64,000 nucleotides of DNA from Anaeromyxobacter sp. GTDB taxonomy: Bacteria > Myxococcota > Myxococcia > Myxococcales > Anaeromyxobacteraceae. The stretch is taken from contig JADKCZ010000005.1 in assembly GCA_016718565.1 (NCBI GenBank), forward strand, positions 238,218-302,217, given 5' to 3'. A program made the position numbers and the translations under genes. Positions 1 through 53,754 of the stretch are shown one piece after another. Numbering within the stretch: position 1 is the first letter of the stretch; each line of letters opens with the position of its first letter. The notes beneath the pieces were generated by a model. That model had not been told where the DNA came from, made no database searches, and was given only the letters and a program-made list of their open reading frames with translations.

Positions 1-161
1 GCTACCGGCAGGCCAGCGACGACCTCTGGCTCCTGCTCGACGGCGAGACCGGCCGCCTGCGCGCCCACGTCCACCGCCGCTGGGAGAGCCAGGACCCGGA
101 GCGCAGGGACAGCGCGCGCCGGGGCGAGGCGGATCCTTGGTCCCCGGGGGCCACCCAGTGA
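1..161 (+). CDS. 3' end of a hypothetical protein that is paralogous to the next gene; its 5' end lies outside the window
   Basis: Frame from nt 3 reads ...YRQASDDLWLLLDGETGRLRAHVHRRWES... and stops at TGA 159-161. The C-terminus parallels the DELWVLVDEETGLVADVVRR C-terminus of the downstream gene. Confidence 0.35.
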   Translation, partial: YRQASDDLWLLLDGETGRLRAHVHRRWESQDPERRDSARRGEADPWSPGATQ

Positions 162-655
162 CCGGGCGCCAGCGCCGGCGAGCCGCGGCGGCGGTGGCCA
201 TGGGGCTGCTCCTCCCCAGCTGCATCATCCCGCTGGCCGGCGACCGGACCGGCCGCTCGGTGTCCCTGCACCCGGCGGACCTGCAGCCGGGCAAGACCAG
301 CAAGGCCGGGCTGTTCGGCCGCCTCGGCCCGCCGCTGGCCATCGCCGGGCCCGGCGAGGAGGTGGCGTTTCCCGCGCCCCGCGTCCAGCACGTGGCCCGC
401 TTCGGTGCCCGCCTGGACGGCGGGGGCACCACCACCCGGCAGGCCGACGCCTGGTTCGCCTCGTTCGAGGCGCGGGGTCCGGTCCGCGCCGGCCACCGGG
501 TCTACTACTGGTCCACCACCACCCACGGGGGCTGGGCGCTCTGGCTGGTGTTCCTGGTGTTCCGCGGCAACTCGTCTTCGACCGACGAGCTCTGGGTCCT
601 GGTCGACGAGGAGACAGGGCTGGTGGCGGACGTGGTGCGCCGCTCCGGCGGGTGA
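158..655 (+). CDS. Hypothetical lipoprotein, tandem paralog of the upstream partial gene
   Basis: GTG start at 158 overlaps the upstream TGA (GTGA). Signal peptide RRRAAAAVAMGLLLPSC has a lipobox-like LPSC. The protein composition is non-repetitive. Confidence 0.45.
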   Translation: MTGRQRRRAAAAVAMGLLLPSCIIPLAGDRTGRSVSLHPADLQPGKTSKAGLFGRLGPPLAIAGPGEEVAFPAPRVQHVARFGARLDGGGTTTRQADAWFASFEARGPVRAGHRVYYWSTTTHGGWALWLVFLVFRGNSSSTDELWVLVDEETGLVADVVRRSGG

Positions 656-767
656 GGGCGGCGCCGCCCCCGGTCTGCTGGTCTGCAGCCTGGTGACTGA
701 TCCGGCTGCCGGCGCGGTGGCGCCCGTTCCCGCGGCGCGGCGCGCGGCGCACCGTTAGCTCCCCGAC

Positions 768-1379
768 ATGGCACCCACCGTCACCCTCTGGTCCGACTTC
801 GTCTGACCCTTCTGCTTCGTCGCCGAAGCCAGCAGCCTGGTCAGGCTGCAGCAGGAGTACGACGTCACGCTCGACTGGCGCGGGTTCGAGCTCCACCCGG
901 ACACGCCGATCGGCGGCCGGGCGCTGGCCGACACCTTCGGCGCCGAGAGGTACGCCGCCATGCGCGCCCACCTCTCCCGCTTCGCGGCCGGCTTCGGCAT
1001 CACCGACATGCTGGCCCCCGAACGCTCCCCCAACACCCGGGCGGCCCTGGCGCTGGCGGAGCACGCCCGGGACCAGGGGCGGCTCCACGAGGCACGCCAC
1101 GCCCTCATGGAGGCCTTCTGGCGGCGCGGCGAGGACCTGGAGGACCGGGCGGTGCTGGCCCGCTGCGCCAGCGCGGCCGGCCTCGATCCGGTCGCCGCGC
1201 TGGCGGCCATCGACGACCCGGCGGTGACGGCCCGCGTCGACGCCATGGGGCGCGACGCCGCCCGGGCCGGCGTGACCGGCATCCCCACCTTCCTCATCGG
1301 CGACCGCCGGGTGGTCGGCTGCCAGCCGTTCGAGGTGCTCGCGGCCGCGGCGGAAGCGGCCGGGGCGAGGCGGCGCTGA
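768..1379 (+). CDS. DsbA/FrnE-like thiol-disulfide oxidoreductase, predicted selenoprotein with a U-P-F-C redox motif and an in-frame TGA at 804-806
   Basis: ATG 768 follows a TAG at 756-758. Translation MAPTVTLWSDFV[TGA]PFCFVAEA... runs in frame into ORF 960..1379. The TGA sits exactly where the first Cys of the DsbA-family SDxxCP(F/W)C motif is expected. A hairpin GCAGCC-UGGUCA-GGCUGC at 832-849 lies 26-43 nt downstream of the UGA and has GGUC in its loop, which is SECIS-like. Confidence 0.6.
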
Positions 1380-1623
1380 GGAGATCCCCGGGCGCTCCCC
1401 CCCGGGGTGGTCGGGCCCGACACCGCCGGCACCGGCGCGGCGGGTCAGCGAGCGGTGGGCCAGGCGGGCCTGGCCGCGCGGAGCCACCAGGCGCTCCTGG
1501 CGCGTCGGCGCCGCGCCGCTGAAGCCGCTTCCGTGAGCCTCCCTGGCGGAGGCCTCACGGCCAGCGCCCGGGCGAGCGGCGGCCGCGGGGCACGCCCGCG
1601 GTGGTGTTACACTCCGCGCCCAT

Positions 1624-3291
1624 GTGCCCTCCCAGCTGGCCTTTCGTGCCCGTCGCAGGCGAGGCCGCCGAGTGAGCGCCCCGGCCGGCGCCGATCGGCG
1701 GCGCGACCGAGGCGCGCTCCTCGCGGTCGCCTGCGTCACCTTCCTGGTCTTCGCCTTCACCCTGCGCCTCGACTTCGTGGCCACCTGGGACGACGGCATC
1801 TACATCCTCGGCAACGAGAACATCCGCCAGCTCTCGCTGGCCACCGTGGGCTGGGCGATCACCGCCGTGCAGCACCTCTGGGCCCCGGTCACCTGGCTCT
1901 CCTTCGCGGTCGACCACGCCATCTGGGGGCTCGACCCGTTCGGCTTCCACCTCACCAACGCGGTCTGCCACGCGCTCGCCGCCGGCCTGGTGGCCTGGCT
2001 GGCGCTGGAGGTGCTGCAGGCGGCCTCCCCCGGGCTGCCGCGGCGGACCAGCCGGGTGGTGGCCCTGGCCGCGGCGCTCGTCTGGGCGCTGCACCCGCTG
2101 CGGGTGGAGTCGGTGGCCTGGGTCTCCGAGCGCAAGGACGTCCTGAGCGGCCTGCTGGGGCTCCTCGCCGTCCTCGCCTACCTCGGGTACGCGCGGAGCC
2201 CGGCCGGGCCCGGCCGGCGCTGGGGCGCCTACGGCCTGGCGCTGGCCTGCTACGCGCTCTCGCTGGGCGCCAAGTCGGCGCTGGTGACGCTGCCGCTGGC
2301 CCTGCTGCTCCTCGACTGGGTGCCGCTCCGCCGCTTCGGCGCCGAGGGCCTGCGCGCGCTGCTCCTGGAGAAGCTCCCGTTCTTCCTGCTGGCGGGCGTG
2401 GTGACCGCCATCACCTTCGTGCCCTTCCAGGGCGCCGGCCTGTCGCTCCAGGAGTCCGGGCTGGAGTCGCGCGCCCTCATCGCGCTGCGCTCGACCTGGG
2501 ACTACCTCGGCATGTCGCTCTGGCCCTCCGGCCTGAGCCCCTTCTACCTGCACCCGATCCGGGCCAGCCTCCAGGACCCCGCCTTCCTCCTGCCCTCGCT
2601 CGGCACCCTGGCGCTCACCGCGGCGGCGCTCTGGCAGGCGCGGCGGCGGCCGGCGCTGGCCGCCACCTGGCTCGCCTACCTCGTGCTCCTGGCCCCAGGG
2701 CTCATGGCCACCCAGGTGTCCGACACGGCCATGGCCGATCGGTTCACCTACCTCCCGGCCATCCCGCTCACGCTGCTGCTCGCCGCTGGCCTGGGCGCGC
2801 TGGCCGACCGCGTCCGCGCGCCGGCCGGCCTGGCCGTGGCCGGCGCGGTGGCGCTGGGCGTGCTGGTGACGCTGTCCGTCCTCACGGTCCGCCAGATCTC
2901 CTACTGGCAGGACGACGTGACCCTCTGGACCCGCGCCATCGACGTCCGGCCGCACTTCTCCGGGCGGATCTACTTCATGCGCGCCACCGCTCACGAGCAG
3001 CGCGGCGACCTGAAGAGCGCCCTGGTCGACGTGGACGAGGCCCTGGCCATCGCCACCGCCAAGCGGTACGGCCGGCTGCAGGACCTCCACACCAAGCGCG
3101 CCCGCATCCGGAAGCAGGCCGGTGACCTCGCCGGGGCCCTGGCCGACTACAGCCAGGCCCTCGCCACCGAGAGCTCGCCGGACCTGCGCGCCATGCTGCT
3201 CGCCGAGCGCGCCGAGGTCCACCGTGGGCTGGGCCAGGCCGACCTGGCGGACGAGGACCTCCGCCAGGCGGCGCAGCCCGCGCAGCGGTAG
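1624..3291 (+). CDS. Polytopic membrane protein of the PMT / GT39 (C-type glycosyltransferase, DUF1736-like) family with C-terminal TPR repeats
   Basis: GTG start. DDGIYIL (DD motif in the first loop), multiple TM helices, and a C-terminal TPR-like region (HEQRGDLKSALVDVDEALAI..., QAGDLAGALADYSQALA...). This architecture is typical of Anaeromyxobacter/Geobacter TPR-glycosyltransferases. Confidence 0.65.
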   Translation: MPSQLAFRARRRRGRRVSAPAGADRRRDRGALLAVACVTFLVFAFTLRLDFVATWDDGIYILGNENIRQLSLATVGWAITAVQHLWAPVTWLSFAVDHAIWGLDPFGFHLTNAVCHALAAGLVAWLALEVLQAASPGLPRRTSRVVALAAALVWALHPLRVESVAWVSERKDVLSGLLGLLAVLAYLGYARSPAGPGRRWGAYGLALACYALSLGAKSALVTLPLALLLLDWVPLRRFGAEGLRALLLEKLPFFLLAGVVTAITFVPFQGAGLSLQESGLESRALIALRSTWDYLGMSLWPSGLSPFYLHPIRASLQDPAFLLPSLGTLALTAAALWQARRRPALAATWLAYLVLLAPGLMATQVSDTAMADRFTYLPAIPLTLLLAAGLGALADRVRAPAGLAVAGAVALGVLVTLSVLTVRQISYWQDDVTLWTRAIDVRPHFSGRIYFMRATAHEQRGDLKSALVDVDEALAIATAKRYGRLQDLHTKRARIRKQAGDLAGALADYSQALATESSPDLRAMLLAERAEVHRGLGQADLADEDLRQAAQPAQR

Positions 3292-3436
3292 GCCGGCGTC
3301 ACCACCTGGGCGGGGGTGTGGCGCAGGGGCAGGGGCGTGCTGCTGCACCCTCTCCCGCTGGCCCGAAGGTGAGGCTCCACCCGGCGCGTGTCCTCCCGGC
3401 GTCCGGGGGCGCAGACTCCTGGTCCGGGAGGCCCCC

Positions 3437-3838
3437 ATGCGCACGCCTGTCCTGCTGCTGCTGCTCGCCGGATGCGGCAACGCCCACTGGACCGAGGCCG
3501 AGGTGGAGCCGCCGCGAGACACCGACGAGGTGGTCGCCGCGGTGGCCTCCCTGCCCGAGTGCGGTGCGCTCCGGGACCGCGGCGGGATCATCCGCTGGCG
3601 CCCCCTGGTGTTCTGCGGGGCAGCCCAGCCGGTCTCGGGCTGCGCCTACCCGTTCCGGGACCCGCCGCTCATCGAGCTCGTCTACCGCTCGTCGGCCTGG
3701 GACGGCCCGCCCCAGAGTCCGACCATCTCGGCCCTGGCCCACGAGCTCTGCCACGTGTGCGGCTACATCGACGGCCCGGACCGCGAGGCGCAGGCCGACG
3801 CGTGCGCCATGCGGGCCAGGCACATGGCTGGGCAGTGA
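3437..3838 (+). CDS. Small lipoprotein with an HExxH zinc-metalloprotease-like motif
   Basis: RBS GGGAGG precedes ATG 3437. Signal and lipobox LLLLLAGCGN. Motif ALAHELCHVCGY. Several Cys residues. Confidence 0.5.
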   Translation: MRTPVLLLLLAGCGNAHWTEAEVEPPRDTDEVVAAVASLPECGALRDRGGIIRWRPLVFCGAAQPVSGCAYPFRDPPLIELVYRSSAWDGPPQSPTISALAHELCHVCGYIDGPDREAQADACAMRARHMAGQ

Positions 3839-3878
3839 GCACCCGCCGTCCAGGTCGCACCCGCACCGGAGGTCCGCC

Positions 3879-5069
3879 ATGCCAGGCGCGCGTCGTGGTC
3901 ACCCGCCACTCCTCCTCGCCCTGGTGGCCGCGCTCGGCGCCTGCGGCAGCGAGCCGACCGGCACCGTCGGCGCCTGGCGACTCGGCGCCCCGATGATCGA
4001 GGCGCGCTCGGGTCACAGCGCGACCGTGCTGCCGAGCGGCCTCGTCCTGGTGGCGGGCGGCGCGGGCGCCTGGCACGCGGACGGCAGCGCCGACATCCTG
4101 GCCAGCGCCGAGCTCTACGACCCGGTGACCGGGGTCTGGACCCCGGCGGCCTCCATGGGGACGGCCCGCGGCTGGCACTCGGCCACGCTCCTCCAGGACG
4201 GCCGGGTGCTGGTGGCGGGGGGCGTCGGTGCCCAGCTCCCGGGCCGGTACACCGACCTCACCAGCGCCGAGCTCTACGACCCCGCCACGAATCGCTGGGA
4301 AGAGACCGGCTCGATGGCCTGGCCACGCGACGGCGAGGCCGTGCTCCTGCCCGACGGCCAGGTGCTGGTCGCCGGGGCCTGCCTGGACGACGGGACCGTG
4401 CTGGCCGTCTCCGAGCGCTACGACCCGGTGAGCGGGACCTGGTCGGACGCGGGGGCGCTCCCCGCCGCGCAGTACTCGATGCCGATGGTGCTCCTCGGGC
4501 CGGCTGGCCCCGTCCTCCTGGCGGGCGGGATCAGCTCCAGGTGCACCACCTGGGAGACCGCCGGGCTCACCTCGCGGGCCCACCTGTACGACCTCACGAC
4601 CCGGACCTGGCGGGCGACCGCGCCGCTCCCCGTCTCGATCTCCGACCACACGCTGACGCTGCTCTGGTCCGGCGAGGTGCTCCTCACCTCGGGGGGCCGG
4701 GGCCGGACCCAGAACCCGGGCGGACCGGCGCTGCTCTTCGACCCCGCCCAGGAGACCTGGCGGCCGACCGGCCCGATGGCGTGGACGCACCACGTCGCGG
4801 AGGCGCGCGTCCTGCCCTCTGGCCGGGTCCTGGTCGCCGCCGGGAACTGGGTGGACGACGAGGGCGACTACCACGCTCCGGGAGGTGACGTGTACGACGC
4901 CGGCCTCGACGCCTGGTCGCCCACCCCGGTGCTGCCCCACCACGTCCTCGCCTGGTGCGCCGCCGTGACCCTGCCGTCTGGTGAGGTGCTCCTCACCGGG
5001 GGCGAGATCTTCAGCCCGGGCCCCTCACGGCAGGTCACCATCTCCGCCGTCCAGCTCTTCCGGGAGTGA
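3879..5069 (+). CDS. Kelch-repeat beta-propeller lipoprotein (galactose-oxidase-like fold)
   Basis: RBS GGAGG precedes ATG 3879. Lipobox LGACGS. Repeated motifs such as LxDGRVLVAGG and AELYDPxTxxW are typical of Kelch blades. Confidence 0.65.
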   Translation: MPGARRGHPPLLLALVAALGACGSEPTGTVGAWRLGAPMIEARSGHSATVLPSGLVLVAGGAGAWHADGSADILASAELYDPVTGVWTPAASMGTARGWHSATLLQDGRVLVAGGVGAQLPGRYTDLTSAELYDPATNRWEETGSMAWPRDGEAVLLPDGQVLVAGACLDDGTVLAVSERYDPVSGTWSDAGALPAAQYSMPMVLLGPAGPVLLAGGISSRCTTWETAGLTSRAHLYDLTTRTWRATAPLPVSISDHTLTLLWSGEVLLTSGGRGRTQNPGGPALLFDPAQETWRPTGPMAWTHHVAEARVLPSGRVLVAAGNWVDDEGDYHAPGGDVYDAGLDAWSPTPVLPHHVLAWCAAVTLPSGEVLLTGGEIFSPGPSRQVTISAVQLFRE

Positions 5070-5137
5070 GCGCTGCACCGCCGATCCCCACGCTGGGCAG
5101 GGATGCCGCCCCGGCCGCCCGGCGCTAGGCTCTCCCC

Positions 5138-5659
5138 ATGCTCGTCGGCCTGGTCTCCGACTCCCACGGCCTGGCCGACCCGGCCCTGCCGGCGCTCCTG
5201 GCCGGCTGCGACCTCATCCTGCACGCCGGCGACCTGGTGAAGCCGGCGGTGCTGGCCGCCCTGGAGGTGGTGGCGCCGGTCCGCGCGGTGCGGGGGAACA
5301 ACGACCTGGCGCCGGGGCTGGAGGAGCTGCCGGACCACCGGCTGGTCACCCTCGACGGCCTGACGGCCTACCTGGTGCACGACGTCGGCTCGCCGGGGCG
5401 CCCCCACCCCTCGGTCGGCAAGGCGCTGCGCCGGCTCCGGCCCGCCCTGGTGATCCACGGCCACAGCCACCGGCCCGGCACGGCGCTGGTGGGGAGCCAC
5501 CTCTTCGTCAACCCGGGCAGCGCCGGGCCGCGCCGCTTCGACCTGCCGCGCACCGCCGGCCGGCTCCGGGTGGACGGGCGCGGGGTGGAGGTGACGCTCT
5601 TCGACCTGGCCACCTCGCCGCCGAGGCCGCTCGCCGCGCCGCTCCGGCTGCTGCTGTGA
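5138..5659 (+). CDS. Metallophosphoesterase (YfcE/MJ0936-like calcineurin-type phosphodiesterase)
   Basis: Motifs DSHG, GD, GNND and GHSH, in the order expected for the MPP superfamily. Confidence 0.85.
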   Translation: MLVGLVSDSHGLADPALPALLAGCDLILHAGDLVKPAVLAALEVVAPVRAVRGNNDLAPGLEELPDHRLVTLDGLTAYLVHDVGSPGRPHPSVGKALRRLRPALVIHGHSHRPGTALVGSHLFVNPGSAGPRRFDLPRTAGRLRVDGRGVEVTLFDLATSPPRPLAAPLRLLL

Positions 5660-5766
5660 CCCCCCTCCCCTGGAGGTGGTCCACCCCCTTTCCTCGAAGT
5701 GCACCCCCCGGGCAGACCTCGTTCGCCTAGACTCCCCGCTCCCGCGCCGCACCTGGAGACCTGCCC

Positions 5767-8268
5767 ATGACCACCCGCCTCGCCGCCCTGGCCTTGCTCA
5801 TGGTGTCCGCAGCCTGCGGAGGCGGGTCGTCTTCTCCGGCGCCGGCCTCGCTGGCCTTCACCGCCGAGCCCGCCTCGGGCAGCGCCCTGGCGCCGCTGGC
5901 CCCCGTGGTGACGGTGGAGCTGCGCGACGCCGCCGGCCTGCTGGTCGCGGACGCCACGGCCTCGGTGACGGTGGCCCTGGCCCCGGGCGCCGGCGCGGCG
6001 GTGCTGGCCGGCACCACCACCCGGGCCGCGGTGGCCGGGGTGGCCACCTTCCCTGGCCTGGTGGTGGCCCGCGCGGGGAGCGGCTACCGCCTCACGGCCA
6101 GCTCGGCCGGGCTCACCGGCGCCACCAGCGCCGCCTTCTCGGTGGCGCCGGGGCCCGCCGCCACGCTGTCCCTGGTGCGCCAGCCCGCCGACGGCCGCAC
6201 CGGGGTGGCGCTGGTGCCCGCCCTGGAGGTGAGCGTGCTGGACGCGGCCGGCAACGCCGTGGAGGACTACGCCTACCAGGTCGACGTGTCGCTCGCGCCG
6301 GGTCCGTCGGGCGGGCCGCTCACCGGCGCCACCTCCGTCGCGGCGGTGGGCGGCGTGGCCAGCTTCCCCGACCTCGCCGTGGGCGGCGTGGGTCCCCACG
6401 CGCTCCGGGTGTCGCAGGGCGGCTTGCCCGCGCTGACCACCTCCACCTTCACCCTCTCCGACGCCTGGGTCTCCCTCGGCCCGGACGGCGGCCTGGTGGC
6501 GGTGGCCCCGGATCCCGGCAGCCCGCTCACCGCCCTGGCGGGCGGGGAGGCCAGCGGGGGGCTCTGGCGCACCGAGGACGGCGGCCTCAGCTGGACGCCC
6601 ATCGCCCCGCTGCGCGGCCGCACCCTCACCCCGACCTTCCAGCAGGCGGGCGTCGCCTGGGCCTACGGCGACTCGCTCTGGCGCTCGGCCGACGGCGGCG
6701 TGAGCTGGGTGGAGACCCCTGGCCTGGCCCTCTCGCAGGACGGCGCGGTCGTCGGGGTGGCGCGGGATCCGGTCAGCGGGGTCACCTACGCCGCCATCAG
6801 CGACATCGACAGCCGGATCCTGGCCAGCGCCGACGACGGCGCCACCTTCACGACGGTGGCCCCGGCGCTCCCCGCCGGCGCCTCGCTCCTCGAGGTGGCG
6901 GCCGGACCGGGCGGCCTCTCGGTGCTCACCAGCCAGGGGTTCCAGACCCTGGCGCGGGACGCGCTCGCCTGGACCTCGCCCGTCCCGGTGGACACCAACC
7001 CGTACCTCCTGCTGGCCCACCCCACCGAGCCCCAGGTCCTCTTCGCCGCCGGCATCTTCGGCCTCCACCGGACCGGCGACGGCGGCGCCACCTGGGAGCA
7101 GGTGGCGCAGGGCCCCTTCCGCGACGTCTGGATCGACCCGGCCGACGACGCGGCCGTCCTGGCCCTCCGGCTCGTGGGCGGCCTGCAGGTCTCCGGCGAC
7201 GGCGGCCTCACCTTCCCCACCAGCGTGGCCCTGGCTTCCTTCGAGGGGCTGTCTCTCGCCGGCACCGCCTCGAGCCTCTACCTCGGCGCGGACGACGGCC
7301 CGTACCGCAGCACCGACCGAGGTGCGACCTGGACTGCCGCCAGGGGCGGACTGCACGCCCGCCGCCTCGGCGCCGTCGCGGTCTCGGGCGGGTCGCCCTC
7401 GGTGCTCCTGGCCGCGGCCGACCACGGCGCGCTCTTCCGCTCGCTCGACGGCGGGAGCACCTTCGAGCCGGTGGCCTCGGGCGGGGGCTCCGAAGGGCGG
7501 CAGCTGGTCTTCGATCCCGCCAGGCCGGAGCGCGCCTACTTCCTGAACGGCACGCTGATGGCGTCGGACGACGCCGGCGCCACCTGGACCCAGCTCGGCG
7601 CGGCGCCCCCGGCCATCGTGCACCTGGCGATCTGCCGGCAGACGCCGACCACGCTCTGGGCCTCCGATCAGAACACCACCGGCGTCTGGCGGTCGACCGA
7701 CGCCGGCGCGACCTGGGCCAGGGTCTTCACCCGGCCGGACGCCAACTTCGGGGTCGGCGACGTGTCGGCCGACGCGGGCGACCCGGCCGTCGCCACCTTC
7801 CCGGCCATCGACTACGCCCCCAGCAGCGCCAGGACCGGGCTCTGGCAGACCCGCGACGCCGGCCTCACCTGGAACAAGCTGGCCGAGCCCTTCTACGGCT
7901 ACCTCCTGGTGGACGGCCTGGAGCCCGGCGCGTTCTGGGCGCTCAACGGCTCCTCCCTGAAGGGCACCACCGACCAGGGGGCCACCTTCACCTCGGTGGC
8001 GCCGCCCATGACCGGCAGCGGATTGGCGCTGGCCCTCGACCCCGCCGATGGGTCCCGGCTGGCGCTGGGCACCGTGAGGACCTACGCCTCCCTGCCGGCC
8101 GACGGCGTCTTCCTCTCCGCCGACCGCGGCGCCACCTGGTTCCAGGCGCGCAGCGGGCACGACCTCTTCAGCACCTACGCCCTGGCCTTCGACCCCGGCG
8201 ACGCGGCCACCCTGTACGCGGCGACCAGGGGCGGCGGCCTCCTCAAGACCACCACCGGCGGGCGGTAG
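5767..8268 (+). CDS. Lipoprotein with N-terminal Ig-like repeats and a BNR/Asp-box beta-propeller (sialidase / Ycf48-like fold)
   Basis: RBS GGAGAC. Lipobox SAACGG. About ten S/T-x-D-G-G-x-S/T-W/F Asp-box motifs (TEDGGLSW, SADGGVSW, TGDGGATW, STDRGATW, ...). Confidence 0.75.
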   Translation: MTTRLAALALLMVSAACGGGSSSPAPASLAFTAEPASGSALAPLAPVVTVELRDAAGLLVADATASVTVALAPGAGAAVLAGTTTRAAVAGVATFPGLVVARAGSGYRLTASSAGLTGATSAAFSVAPGPAATLSLVRQPADGRTGVALVPALEVSVLDAAGNAVEDYAYQVDVSLAPGPSGGPLTGATSVAAVGGVASFPDLAVGGVGPHALRVSQGGLPALTTSTFTLSDAWVSLGPDGGLVAVAPDPGSPLTALAGGEASGGLWRTEDGGLSWTPIAPLRGRTLTPTFQQAGVAWAYGDSLWRSADGGVSWVETPGLALSQDGAVVGVARDPVSGVTYAAISDIDSRILASADDGATFTTVAPALPAGASLLEVAAGPGGLSVLTSQGFQTLARDALAWTSPVPVDTNPYLLLAHPTEPQVLFAAGIFGLHRTGDGGATWEQVAQGPFRDVWIDPADDAAVLALRLVGGLQVSGDGGLTFPTSVALASFEGLSLAGTASSLYLGADDGPYRSTDRGATWTAARGGLHARRLGAVAVSGGSPSVLLAAADHGALFRSLDGGSTFEPVASGGGSEGRQLVFDPARPERAYFLNGTLMASDDAGATWTQLGAAPPAIVHLAICRQTPTTLWASDQNTTGVWRSTDAGATWARVFTRPDANFGVGDVSADAGDPAVATFPAIDYAPSSARTGLWQTRDAGLTWNKLAEPFYGYLLVDGLEPGAFWALNGSSLKGTTDQGATFTSVAPPMTGSGLALALDPADGSRLALGTVRTYASLPADGVFLSADRGATWFQARSGHDLFSTYALAFDPGDAATLYAATRGGGLLKTTTGGR

Positions 8269-8505
8269 CCGCTCGCGGCGGCCCGCACCGGGCCCGCCGC
8301 GGAGGCCTGGCACGAGACACCGGGCTCGCCGCCCTGCCGGGAGGCGAGGCCGCCCAGCGCCTCGGCCCCCCTTCCCGCCAGGGGCTCGGACGTTCCATCG
8401 CACCCGGCCGTGGCGACCCGGCAAATCCGGATCCCGACCTCGACGGGGGACCTACGCTTGGTCCGTCGTTCGCCCGGCGTGCCGGAGCGGACGGGGAGGG
8501 GTCCC

Positions 8506-53064: not shown

Positions 53065-53754
53065 TCACCACTCGCGGAGGAAGTGGCAGGTGTAGCCGCC
53101 CGGGTGCTTCAGCAGGTAGTCCTGATGGTCGGCCTCGGCGCGGTACCACGGCCCCGCCGGCGCGATCTCCGTGACGATGACGCCCTTCCACCGACCGGCC
53201 TGCTGCACCCGCGCCTTGACCGCCTCGGCGGTGCGGCGCTGCGCCTCGTCGGCGTAGAAGATGGCGCTGCGGTACTGCGTGCCCCGGTCGTTGCCCTGCC
53301 GGTCCCTGGTGGTGGGGTCGTGCATGCGGAAGAACCACCGCTCGAGCAGCTCGTCAAAGCCGAGCCGCCTCGGGTCGAAGACCACCCGCACCGCCTCGGC
53401 GTGGCCGGAGCGCGAGTCGTGGGTGTCCTGGTAACGCGGGTTCAGGAGCCACCCGCCGGTGTAGCCCACCTCGGTCTCGAGGACGCCCGGGATCTTCCTG
53501 AGGAGGTCCTGCATGCCCCAGAAGCAACCTCCGGCCAGCACCGCCACCTCGCGCTCGCCGACCGGGCGGGGCGCGGCGGTGGCCGGCGGCGCTGGCGCCG
53601 GGGCGGGCCGGGACGCCGCGGCGGGCCGCTTCACCGCGGGTGATGTCGGCTGGTCGGCCGGCGCAGCGGCGGGCAGGAGGGTGGCGGCCAGGAGGGCGGC
53701 GGCGAGCGCCCGGCCCATCAGGTGGACGGCGGGGGCGGCAGTGGACGACGGCAT
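53065..53754 (-). CDS. msrA: Peptide-methionine (S)-S-oxide reductase MsrA, secreted/periplasmic form
   Basis: Signal peptide plus a Pro/Ala linker, then LAGGCFWGMQ (catalytic Cys motif) and the conserved MsrA core. Confidence 0.9.
   Translation of the reverse strand: MPSSTAAPAVHLMGRALAAALLAATLLPAAAPADQPTSPAVKRPAAASRPAPAPAPPATAAPRPVGEREVAVLAGGCFWGMQDLLRKIPGVLETEVGYTGGWLLNPRYQDTHDSRSGHAEAVRVVFDPRRLGFDELLERWFFRMHDPTTRDRQGNDRGTQYRSAIFYADEAQRRTAEAVKARVQQAGRWKGVIVTEIAPAGPWYRAEADHQDYLLKHPGGYTCHFLREW

Follow-up and report, generated by a model that had tools for sequence, protein, structure and literature searches.

A selenoprotein family termed "DsbA-like protein", assigned to COG2761 and carrying a UxxC motif, was described as new from the Sargasso Sea in 2005, together with a predicted SECIS (PMC1088965). 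Members were reported from four genomes, including that of A. dehalogenans, in 2006 (PMC1794560) and from 41 organisms in a 2016 survey (PMC5029168), and a 2026 review lists the entry "DsbA-like protein form 1, PF01323, UxxC" (PMC13188914). A. dehalogenans has 11 selenoproteins, SelD and the DsbA-like protein among them, and its SelA and SelB sequences are found in the supplement of the same paper (PMC1794560). The published model of the bacterial SECIS (bSECIS) specifies a loop of 3-9 nt on a stem of 4-16 bp, a UGA-loop spacing of 16-37 nt, a G at loop position 1 or 2 (usually G[G/U]) and a minimum free energy of -7.5 kcal/mol or lower (PMC13188914). FrnE of D. radiodurans, a Cys enzyme, acts in vitro as a disulfide reductase/isomerase and is cytoplasmic; its active site is regenerated by a CxxxxC motif, and its inducers are cadmium, radiation and desiccation (PMC8945050).

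Here we describe a gene at positions 768..1379 (forward strand) of a 64-kb stretch of DNA, the whole of which is hereafter called the window. We propose, with a probability of about 0.93, that it encodes a cytoplasmic FrnE-type thiol-disulfide oxidoreductase of the DsbA family (COG2761) whose attacking residue is selenocysteine, U13, in the motif U-P-F-C16.

The reading frame could be established directly from the DNA. From the ATG at 768..770 (+), the first start codon past an in-frame TAG (756-758), the frame runs MAPTVTLWSDFV-TGA-PFCFVAEASSLVRLQ... and continues in phase to a TGA at 1377..1379 (+), so that the complete CDS comprises 203 codons including Sec13, plus the stop. This was the reading proposed in the initial annotation, with translation resuming as PFCFVAE... 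after an in-frame TGA (804..806, +), and it was confirmed by our translation. UGA serves this gene twice, as its predicted selenocysteine codon and as its stop. The position of the true stop agrees with the lengths of homologs, whose median is 204 aa and which have a Met at the position equivalent to our start. The mechanical ORF list gives the gene as 960..1379, with ATG 960 as the start and a product of 139 aa.

The window has a G+C content of 75.9%, and therefore third-position G+C (GC3) is a good marker of the coding frame. In the frame of the gene GC3 is 0.95 over 768-959 and 0.96 over 960-1379, while in the same frame it is 0.68 over the 112 nt upstream of 768. Beyond the stop the coding signature is absent (1380-1623, same frame: GC2 0.78, GC3 0.83). 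The 12 codons before the TGA and the 51 codons after it have a GC3 of 0.92-0.98 and show coding-type constraint. Therefore, coding begins at approximately 768 and continues through the TGA at 804-806. When the whole window was scanned for TGAs flanked on either side by coding signal, two were returned in 64 kb, at 804 and at 16550, the latter being an ordinary stop between two adjacent genes. A promoter and terminator consensus scan of 500-1700 found no sites.

Protein-level comparisons bear on the same point. It had been envisaged that homologs might all start downstream of the motif, with 768-959 unconserved; this was rejected, as a Met lies 12 residues ahead of the Sec/Cys codon in most of 80 homologous loci and the sequence that follows the TGA is constrained. 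In a comparison of the window with its nine closest relatives, the substitution rate over 807-959 is no higher than over 960-1330 and the third-position bias is similar. Moreover, when the TGA is read as Cys, residues 4-194 match positions 1-189 of the 191-position Pfam DSBA profile (PF01323, E 8.9e-37). As the match begins at residue 4, the segment ahead of Met-960 belongs to the domain, and a start at Met-960 would cost the first third of it. The observation in the initial annotation that the ORF track, by starting at Met-960, cuts off the active site is therefore upheld: 960 is indeed the listed start, and PF01323 needs the residues that precede it.

The redox motif U13-P14-F15-C16 (UxxC; 804..815, +) is supported by sequence conservation and by a structure model. 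C16 is invariant in 81/81 sequences, and D10, V12, P14, F15 and C16 are all invariant in our alignment A2. The model is that of a Cys homolog of 65% identity, used as a proxy for the window protein (pLDDT 94.3). In it, position 13 sits directly ahead of helix 14-21, where thioredoxin folds normally place their attacking residue. The Pro173 codon (1284..1286, +) falls in a G-I-P-T sequence whose four residues, G171, I172, P173 and T174, are likewise invariant in A2, just before strand 174-177 of the model. From general knowledge of the fold we take Pro173, by its position, to be the cis-Pro loop that adjoins the active site. Besides C16 the only cysteines are C133 and C185, and the protein ends at residue 203. 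Cys185 (codon 1320..1322, +, in VVGCQP) is a third, largely conserved cysteine, being Cys in 23/23 Cys forms and in 43/58 Sec forms; 14 Sec forms have Ala at residue 185.

The best fold matches of the proxy model were FrnE (TMq 0.84, rmsd 2.5 A) and SCO1869. Among solved structures FrnE also ranked first by sequence (E 3.8e-18), so that the label "FrnE-like" given in the initial annotation stands on both counts. The N-terminus reads MAPTVTLWSDFVU. The motif starts at residue 9 and the active site is at residue 13, too early for a signal peptide to precede them, and the protein is therefore cytoplasmic. In NCBIfam no dedicated model for the DsbA-like selenoprotein family was found. The model NF041057 (Rcas_1661 family thioredoxin-like (seleno)lipoprotein) scored 40.2 bits against a cut-off of 190, over the C-terminal 100 residues only.

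A search of approximately 5.8 billion proteins returned full-length close homologs of about 204-216 aa, all of which carry (S/T)D(F/I)VCPFC. To this we added 80 homologous loci from species-representative genomes, in which the codon at the U13 position was read directly from the DNA. Of the 80 loci, 57 have TGA there, 13 have TGC and 10 have TGT; neither TAA nor TAG occurs. The proposal that the TGA occupies the place of the first Cys of the DsbA motif, as one half of a Sec/Cys pair, is thus borne out by 57 TGA against 23 TGC/TGT. Moreover, U13 aligns with Cys22, the nucleophile of CPWC in D. radiodurans FrnE. To judge by their record titles, the TGA forms come from Anaeromyxobacter, Anaeromyxobacteraceae, other Myxococcota, Gemmatimonadota, Chloroflexota, Binatia, Marinimicrobia, Calditrichaceae and Thermoanaerobaculia; Cys forms belong chiefly to Polyangia. 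The gene is also present on four contigs from four separate sequencing runs (independent metagenome assemblies), with zero differences over 768-1379 where they overlap. Three of the four contain the TGA motif, the fourth starting at position 800. The match between these independent contigs excludes both a sequencing error and a lineage-specific pseudogene. Searches for conserved synteny with orthologs by tblastn and tblastx gave only compositional noise, even against a 90%-identical ortholog.

Downstream of the TGA, the initial annotation had noted a hairpin at 832-849 with GGUC in its loop, at a SECIS-like distance. The hairpin (832..849, +) lies within the CDS, where it encodes S-S-L-V-R-L-Q. 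It is present as described, and its stem is one pair longer than first noted, U838-A843 also being paired. The sequence GCAGCCU-GGUC-AGGCUGC forms a 7-bp stem (832-838/843-849) with a 4-nt apical loop (GGUC, 839-842) at -11.1 kcal/mol, 32 nt separating the UGA at 804-806 from the loop. All four properties set by the bSECIS model are present. The spacing of 32 nt is near the upper end of the 16-37 nt of the model.

Taken singly, such a hairpin is weak evidence, because a hairpin that satisfies the model lies downstream of 23.6% of the 873 TGA triplets in the window, and one of equal strength lies downstream of 3.0%. The fold of 800-870 has a z-score of -1.48, with 19/200 shuffles folding equally well. 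Rfam searches of the whole window at gathering thresholds, and of 700-950 at E values up to 10, matched no bacterial SECIS or other family and gave only two chance hits (E > 4). A nearer hairpin at 813-828 (GCUUCG/CGAAGC) was considered as part of the SECIS and rejected, since its structure is unconserved and RNAalifold retains only 2 bp of it.

Comparison across homologs gives a far sharper picture of 832-849. Standard pairs account for 95.9% of the stem cells of 56 distinct Sec-form sequences, and 3/7 stem pairs have undergone double compensatory changes (G-C to C-G, G-C to A-U and C-G to U-A). None of 500 shuffles reached the covariation score of the stem, and when the partner strand is slid by 1-3 nt pairing falls to 17-46%. 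The loop begins with GG in 58/58 Sec forms as against 1/23 Cys forms, and the mean number of stem pairs, out of 7, is 6.72 in Sec forms as against 4.22 in Cys forms. The entropy of third codon positions within the hairpin is 0-0.42 bits in Sec forms, compared with 1.2-1.6 bits at flanking third positions; in Cys forms 5/6 of the third positions in the hairpin vary (0.84-1.49 bits). The Arg codon in the hairpin is AGG in 53/58 Sec forms, even though many of the hosts are rich in G+C. One Cys form (L008) is a natural control, in that it keeps the peptide SSLVRLQ through other codons and its hairpin is broken. Another Cys form, L067, retains the hairpin intact. Taken together, these comparative data are decisive and far above chance: it is in the Sec forms alone that the hairpin is conserved with covariation. 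Within this DsbA-like family its sequence hardly varies across the several phyla represented. The hairpin is also a neat case from nature in which an RNA structure constrains the overlapping protein sequence.

We also searched for components of the Sec machinery. A Pfam scan of approximately 40 ORFs across the 64-kb window detected no SelA, SelB or SelD. The same scan, together with the two-sided coding-signal TGA scan, detected no other selenoprotein gene in the window. No tRNAs were found in the window, and ARAGORN predicted no tRNA-Sec in the window or in the 57 Sec-form loci with their flanks, returning only one tRNA-Leu.

Three other explanations of the TGA at 804-806 were weighed against selenocysteine. 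Were it a real stop, the locus would be a pseudogene or would encode a naturally short protein, yielding either nothing functional or a product that starts at GTG 819 (Val18) or ATG 960 and has no redox motif. This would accord with the mechanical ORF call from 960, with gene callers having chosen that start on the four independent contigs too, and with the truncated calls made for 54 of the 120 best database homologs. However, 57 species-level genomes, drawn from several phyla, share the TGA at this very codon, where TAA and TAG never occur, and the codons on either side of it are under coding-type constraint with a GC3 of 0.92-0.98. Moreover, the Pfam domain requires residues 4-64, synonymous sites in the hairpin are constrained only where the codon is TGA, and the truncated product would have a fold that is missing its first strand, its helix 1 and its catalytic residues. 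We therefore regard a genuine stop as highly improbable, and these comparative data effectively refute it already. An error in sequencing or assembly, by which TGC or TGT became TGA, has in its favour only that such errors are possible in general. It is already refuted, its chance being negligible, by the four matching contigs from separate runs, three of which confirm the TGA motif, and by the same TGA in 57 other genomes.

The remaining alternative accepts that the UGA is read through and assigns it to another amino acid, be it Cys, brought in by a UCA-anticodon tRNA(Cys) together with a SelB-like factor, as is known from the literature, or Trp, Cys or Arg inserted by near-cognate decoding. 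The inserted amino acid is not readable from sequence alone, Cys would be functionally acceptable given its use by 23/80 homologs, and no Sec machinery was found among the ORFs scanned in the 64-kb window. Against this, the hairpin fits the SelB-type bSECIS model, including the conserved GG in a small loop, and the genus has published SelA, SelB and SelD as well as 11 selenoproteins, the DsbA-like family included (PMC1794560). A genome-wide reassignment of UGA is excluded, as TGA is an ordinary stop in this 76% G+C window and even in the gene at 768-1379. We consider recoding to an amino acid other than selenocysteine very unlikely, if somewhat less so than a genuine stop, and selenocysteine at U13 is the reading that we adopt.

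The decoding of the gene may be reconstructed from the E. coli paradigm of Sec insertion, from which we infer both selenium incorporation and SelB binding (summarised in PMC1794560). With the ribosome at UGA 804-806, the hairpin at 832-849 would recruit SelB-GTP-Sec-tRNA(Sec) by way of its GGUC loop, and Sec would be inserted at the UGA in place of termination. The ribosome would then melt the hairpin, read it as SSLVRLQ and end at UGA 1377-1379. By homology, Sec13 would be placed at the N-terminus of helix 1, in a thioredoxin fold with an inserted helical domain. Sec13 and Cys16 would alternate between the selenol/thiol and selenenylsulfide states, and substrate disulfides would be reduced or reshuffled; the choice of substrates and the direction in which the reaction runs in the cell are likewise presumed. 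Since the C-terminal CxxxxC tail of FrnE is missing here, the window protein would have to be recycled by another route.

A wider interpretation may also be drawn from these data. The FrnE-like clade might be predominantly Sec-using (57/80 genomes, at least 6 phylum-level lineages), with a near-invariant SECIS that fixes SSLVRLQ and with repeated horizontal spread. Cys185 might then be a third redox residue that takes the place of the CxxxxC tail and resolves the selenenylsulfide. A near-invariant SECIS and the lack of conserved synteny would, if this is true, point to repeated horizontal spread of a self-contained selenoprotein-plus-SECIS gene. As a joint proposition we think this doubtful, and even if true it would leave the identity of the gene unchanged.

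The truncated calls extend well beyond this locus. The 54 of 120 best database homologs that are truncated lack the active site, and these short calls begin at "(M/V)AE.SSLV", the first possible start past the motif, or further downstream. The product of the window itself is present in databases only as a 139-aa fragment without the active site. The DsbA-like selenoprotein family is thus systematically mis-annotated, and without a dedicated NCBIfam model the annotation pipeline cannot rescue the truncated calls. The 58 Sec-form and 23 Cys-form sequences, with their sharply conserved SECIS, are sufficient to build a family model. The value of this is practical rather than scientific. The scientific weight of the locus is small, as the family has been in the literature since 2005 and in Anaeromyxobacter since 2006.

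Lastly, we compared the gene and its product with known systems. The hairpin resembles the bSECIS model in being an in-CDS stem-loop just 3' of the UGA with a 7-bp upper stem and a small loop that starts with GG; no bulged U is evident in it. The apical loop of the E. coli fdhF SECIS also contains GGUC. Periplasmic DsbA (E. coli type), kappa-class GST and HCCA isomerases share with the window protein a thioredoxin fold with an inserted helical domain, and are weaker matches than FrnE (E 1e-9 to 1e-5, TMq 0.5-0.75). The last two of these families comprise glutathione-dependent isomerases or transferases and not CxxC dithiol enzymes. Identity with periplasmic DsbA was rejected on the grounds of an active site as early as residue 13 and the absence of a leader.

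FrnE of D. radiodurans (DR_0659; PDB 5cnw, 5co3), a cytoplasmic disulfide oxidoreductase/isomerase, has approximately 26% identity to the window protein. Like it, FrnE has no signal peptide and has its active site, WSD..CP(W/F)C, at the equivalent place. The two differ in that FrnE has Cys where the window protein has Sec and Ala where the window protein has Cys185, and in that FrnE has a C-terminal extension with CxxxxC, whereas the window protein has no CxxxxC and stops at residue 203. The FrnE proteins of S. roseofulvus and D. maricopensis are also without CxxxxC (PMC8945050), and therefore this motif does not strictly define the FrnE subfamily. The window protein fits that subfamily (cd03024-type), having a CP(W/F)C-type site (here UPFC) and a DsbA-like domain, with no signal peptide. 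Disulfide reductase/isomerase activity has been demonstrated in the subfamily only for the D. radiodurans enzyme.

The closest described protein is the member from A. dehalogenans, whose genus-level lineage is that of the closest relatives of the window. In contrast to this published protein, the window copy carries no selenoprotein annotation in the databases searched, being represented there by its 139-aa fragment alone. Over 192 aa the two proteins are 57% identical (E 7e-57). As the identity is only 57%, the A. dehalogenans protein comes from a different species or is possibly a paralogous copy. It has the same DSBA domain, the same UxxC motif with Sec first, a length of 203 aa and Sec at residue 13. 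Its sequence, MPARLRLFTDFVUPFCFVAERSSLVRL...VVGCRPYDVL..., shares (S/T)DFVUPFCFVAE.SSLVRL and the C-terminal VVGC.P with the window protein. The gene at 768-1379 is thus a member of an already described selenoprotein family, and its recognition here is a correct rediscovery.

Among the homologous loci, L067, from a Leptospiraceae MAG (motif at 643), is a Cys form with TGC, yet its SECIS stem pairs at 7/7 positions and the GGUC loop is kept; this hairpin looks like a fossil SECIS following a recent switch from Sec to Cys. L008, a Cys locus of Myxococcaceae GXIMD 01537 (motif at 3025), has the peptide SSLVRLQ of the window protein, written with other codons that abolish the hairpin. Moreover, a variant SECIS loop, UGGA(C/U/G)C, was found in the Gemmatimonadota Sec forms L020, L022, L028, L037 and L066. 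In these loci the GG is kept, the U-A closing pair is lost, therefore giving a loop of 6 nt, and the peptide LVRL is replaced by L(D/E)RL.

Two further hairpins flank the selenoprotein gene. The intergenic hairpin GCAGCC-UGGUGACUGAUCC-GGCUGC (685-709) lies between the end of the upstream ORF at 655 and the selenoprotein gene, and has both the arms GCAGCC/GGCUGC and the 9-mer GCAGCCUGG in common with the SECIS stem at 832-849. This likeness may be due to chance in a genome of 76% G+C. Downstream, a perfect 7-bp G+C palindrome, CCCCGGG[CGCUCCCC]CCCGGGG (1386-1407), starts 7 nt past the true stop TGA at 1377-1379. Its loop begins 13 nt after this stop, which is below the 16 nt minimum of the published bacterial SECIS model; no U-run follows the palindrome on its 3′ side, and it was not among the results of a consensus terminator scan.

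Gene calls for this family are frequently truncated, as in the protein database hits P0004, P0018-P0040 and others and at L081-L084. Among the 120 database proteins most similar to the window product, 54 are shortened calls from which the CPxC motif is missing. The product of the window gene itself is represented in the database solely by a 139-aa fragment, and NCBIfam holds no model dedicated to the DsbA/FrnE-like selenoprotein. When positions 1-6000 of the window were compared with the homologous loci L001-L006, no conserved neighbourhood was found and the selenoprotein gene alone aligned, a comparison restricted by short MAG contigs. The neighbourhood differs even from that of an ortholog 90% identical in protein, which would fit mobility of the gene.

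Elsewhere in the window, only one TGA besides that at 804 has a coding signal on both sides, namely TGA 16550. This lies between the glyoxylate shunt genes for isocitrate lyase (14201-16552, + strand) and malate synthase (16571-18868, + strand), which adjoin in a shared reading frame with the TGA and 18 nt in between; it is an ordinary stop. Methionine sulfoxide reductase A (MsrA), a selenoprotein in some bacteria according to the table of a 2006 survey (PMC1794560), is encoded at 53065-53754 on the - strand (PF01625, full-length match). This ORF has no interruption, and thus the window MsrA is presumably a Cys form. We also observed, in this apparently Anaeromyxobacter-like genome, a 996-aa ORF (8410-11400, + strand) with domains of the clostridial binary-toxin-B / anthrax protective-antigen type (PF03495, E 4e-13; PF17475, E 7e-9).

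Lastly, the selenoprotein carries a third cysteine, Cys185 (VVGCQP; 1320-1322, + strand), whose conservation was followed among both Sec and Cys forms. All 23 Cys forms have this residue, as do 43/58 Sec forms; another 14 Sec forms have Ala instead. FrnE of D. radiodurans, the closest solved structure, has Ala at this position; conversely, the C-terminal CxxxxC motif that regenerates the active site of FrnE is missing from the window protein. Cys185 might stand in for this CxxxxC tail.
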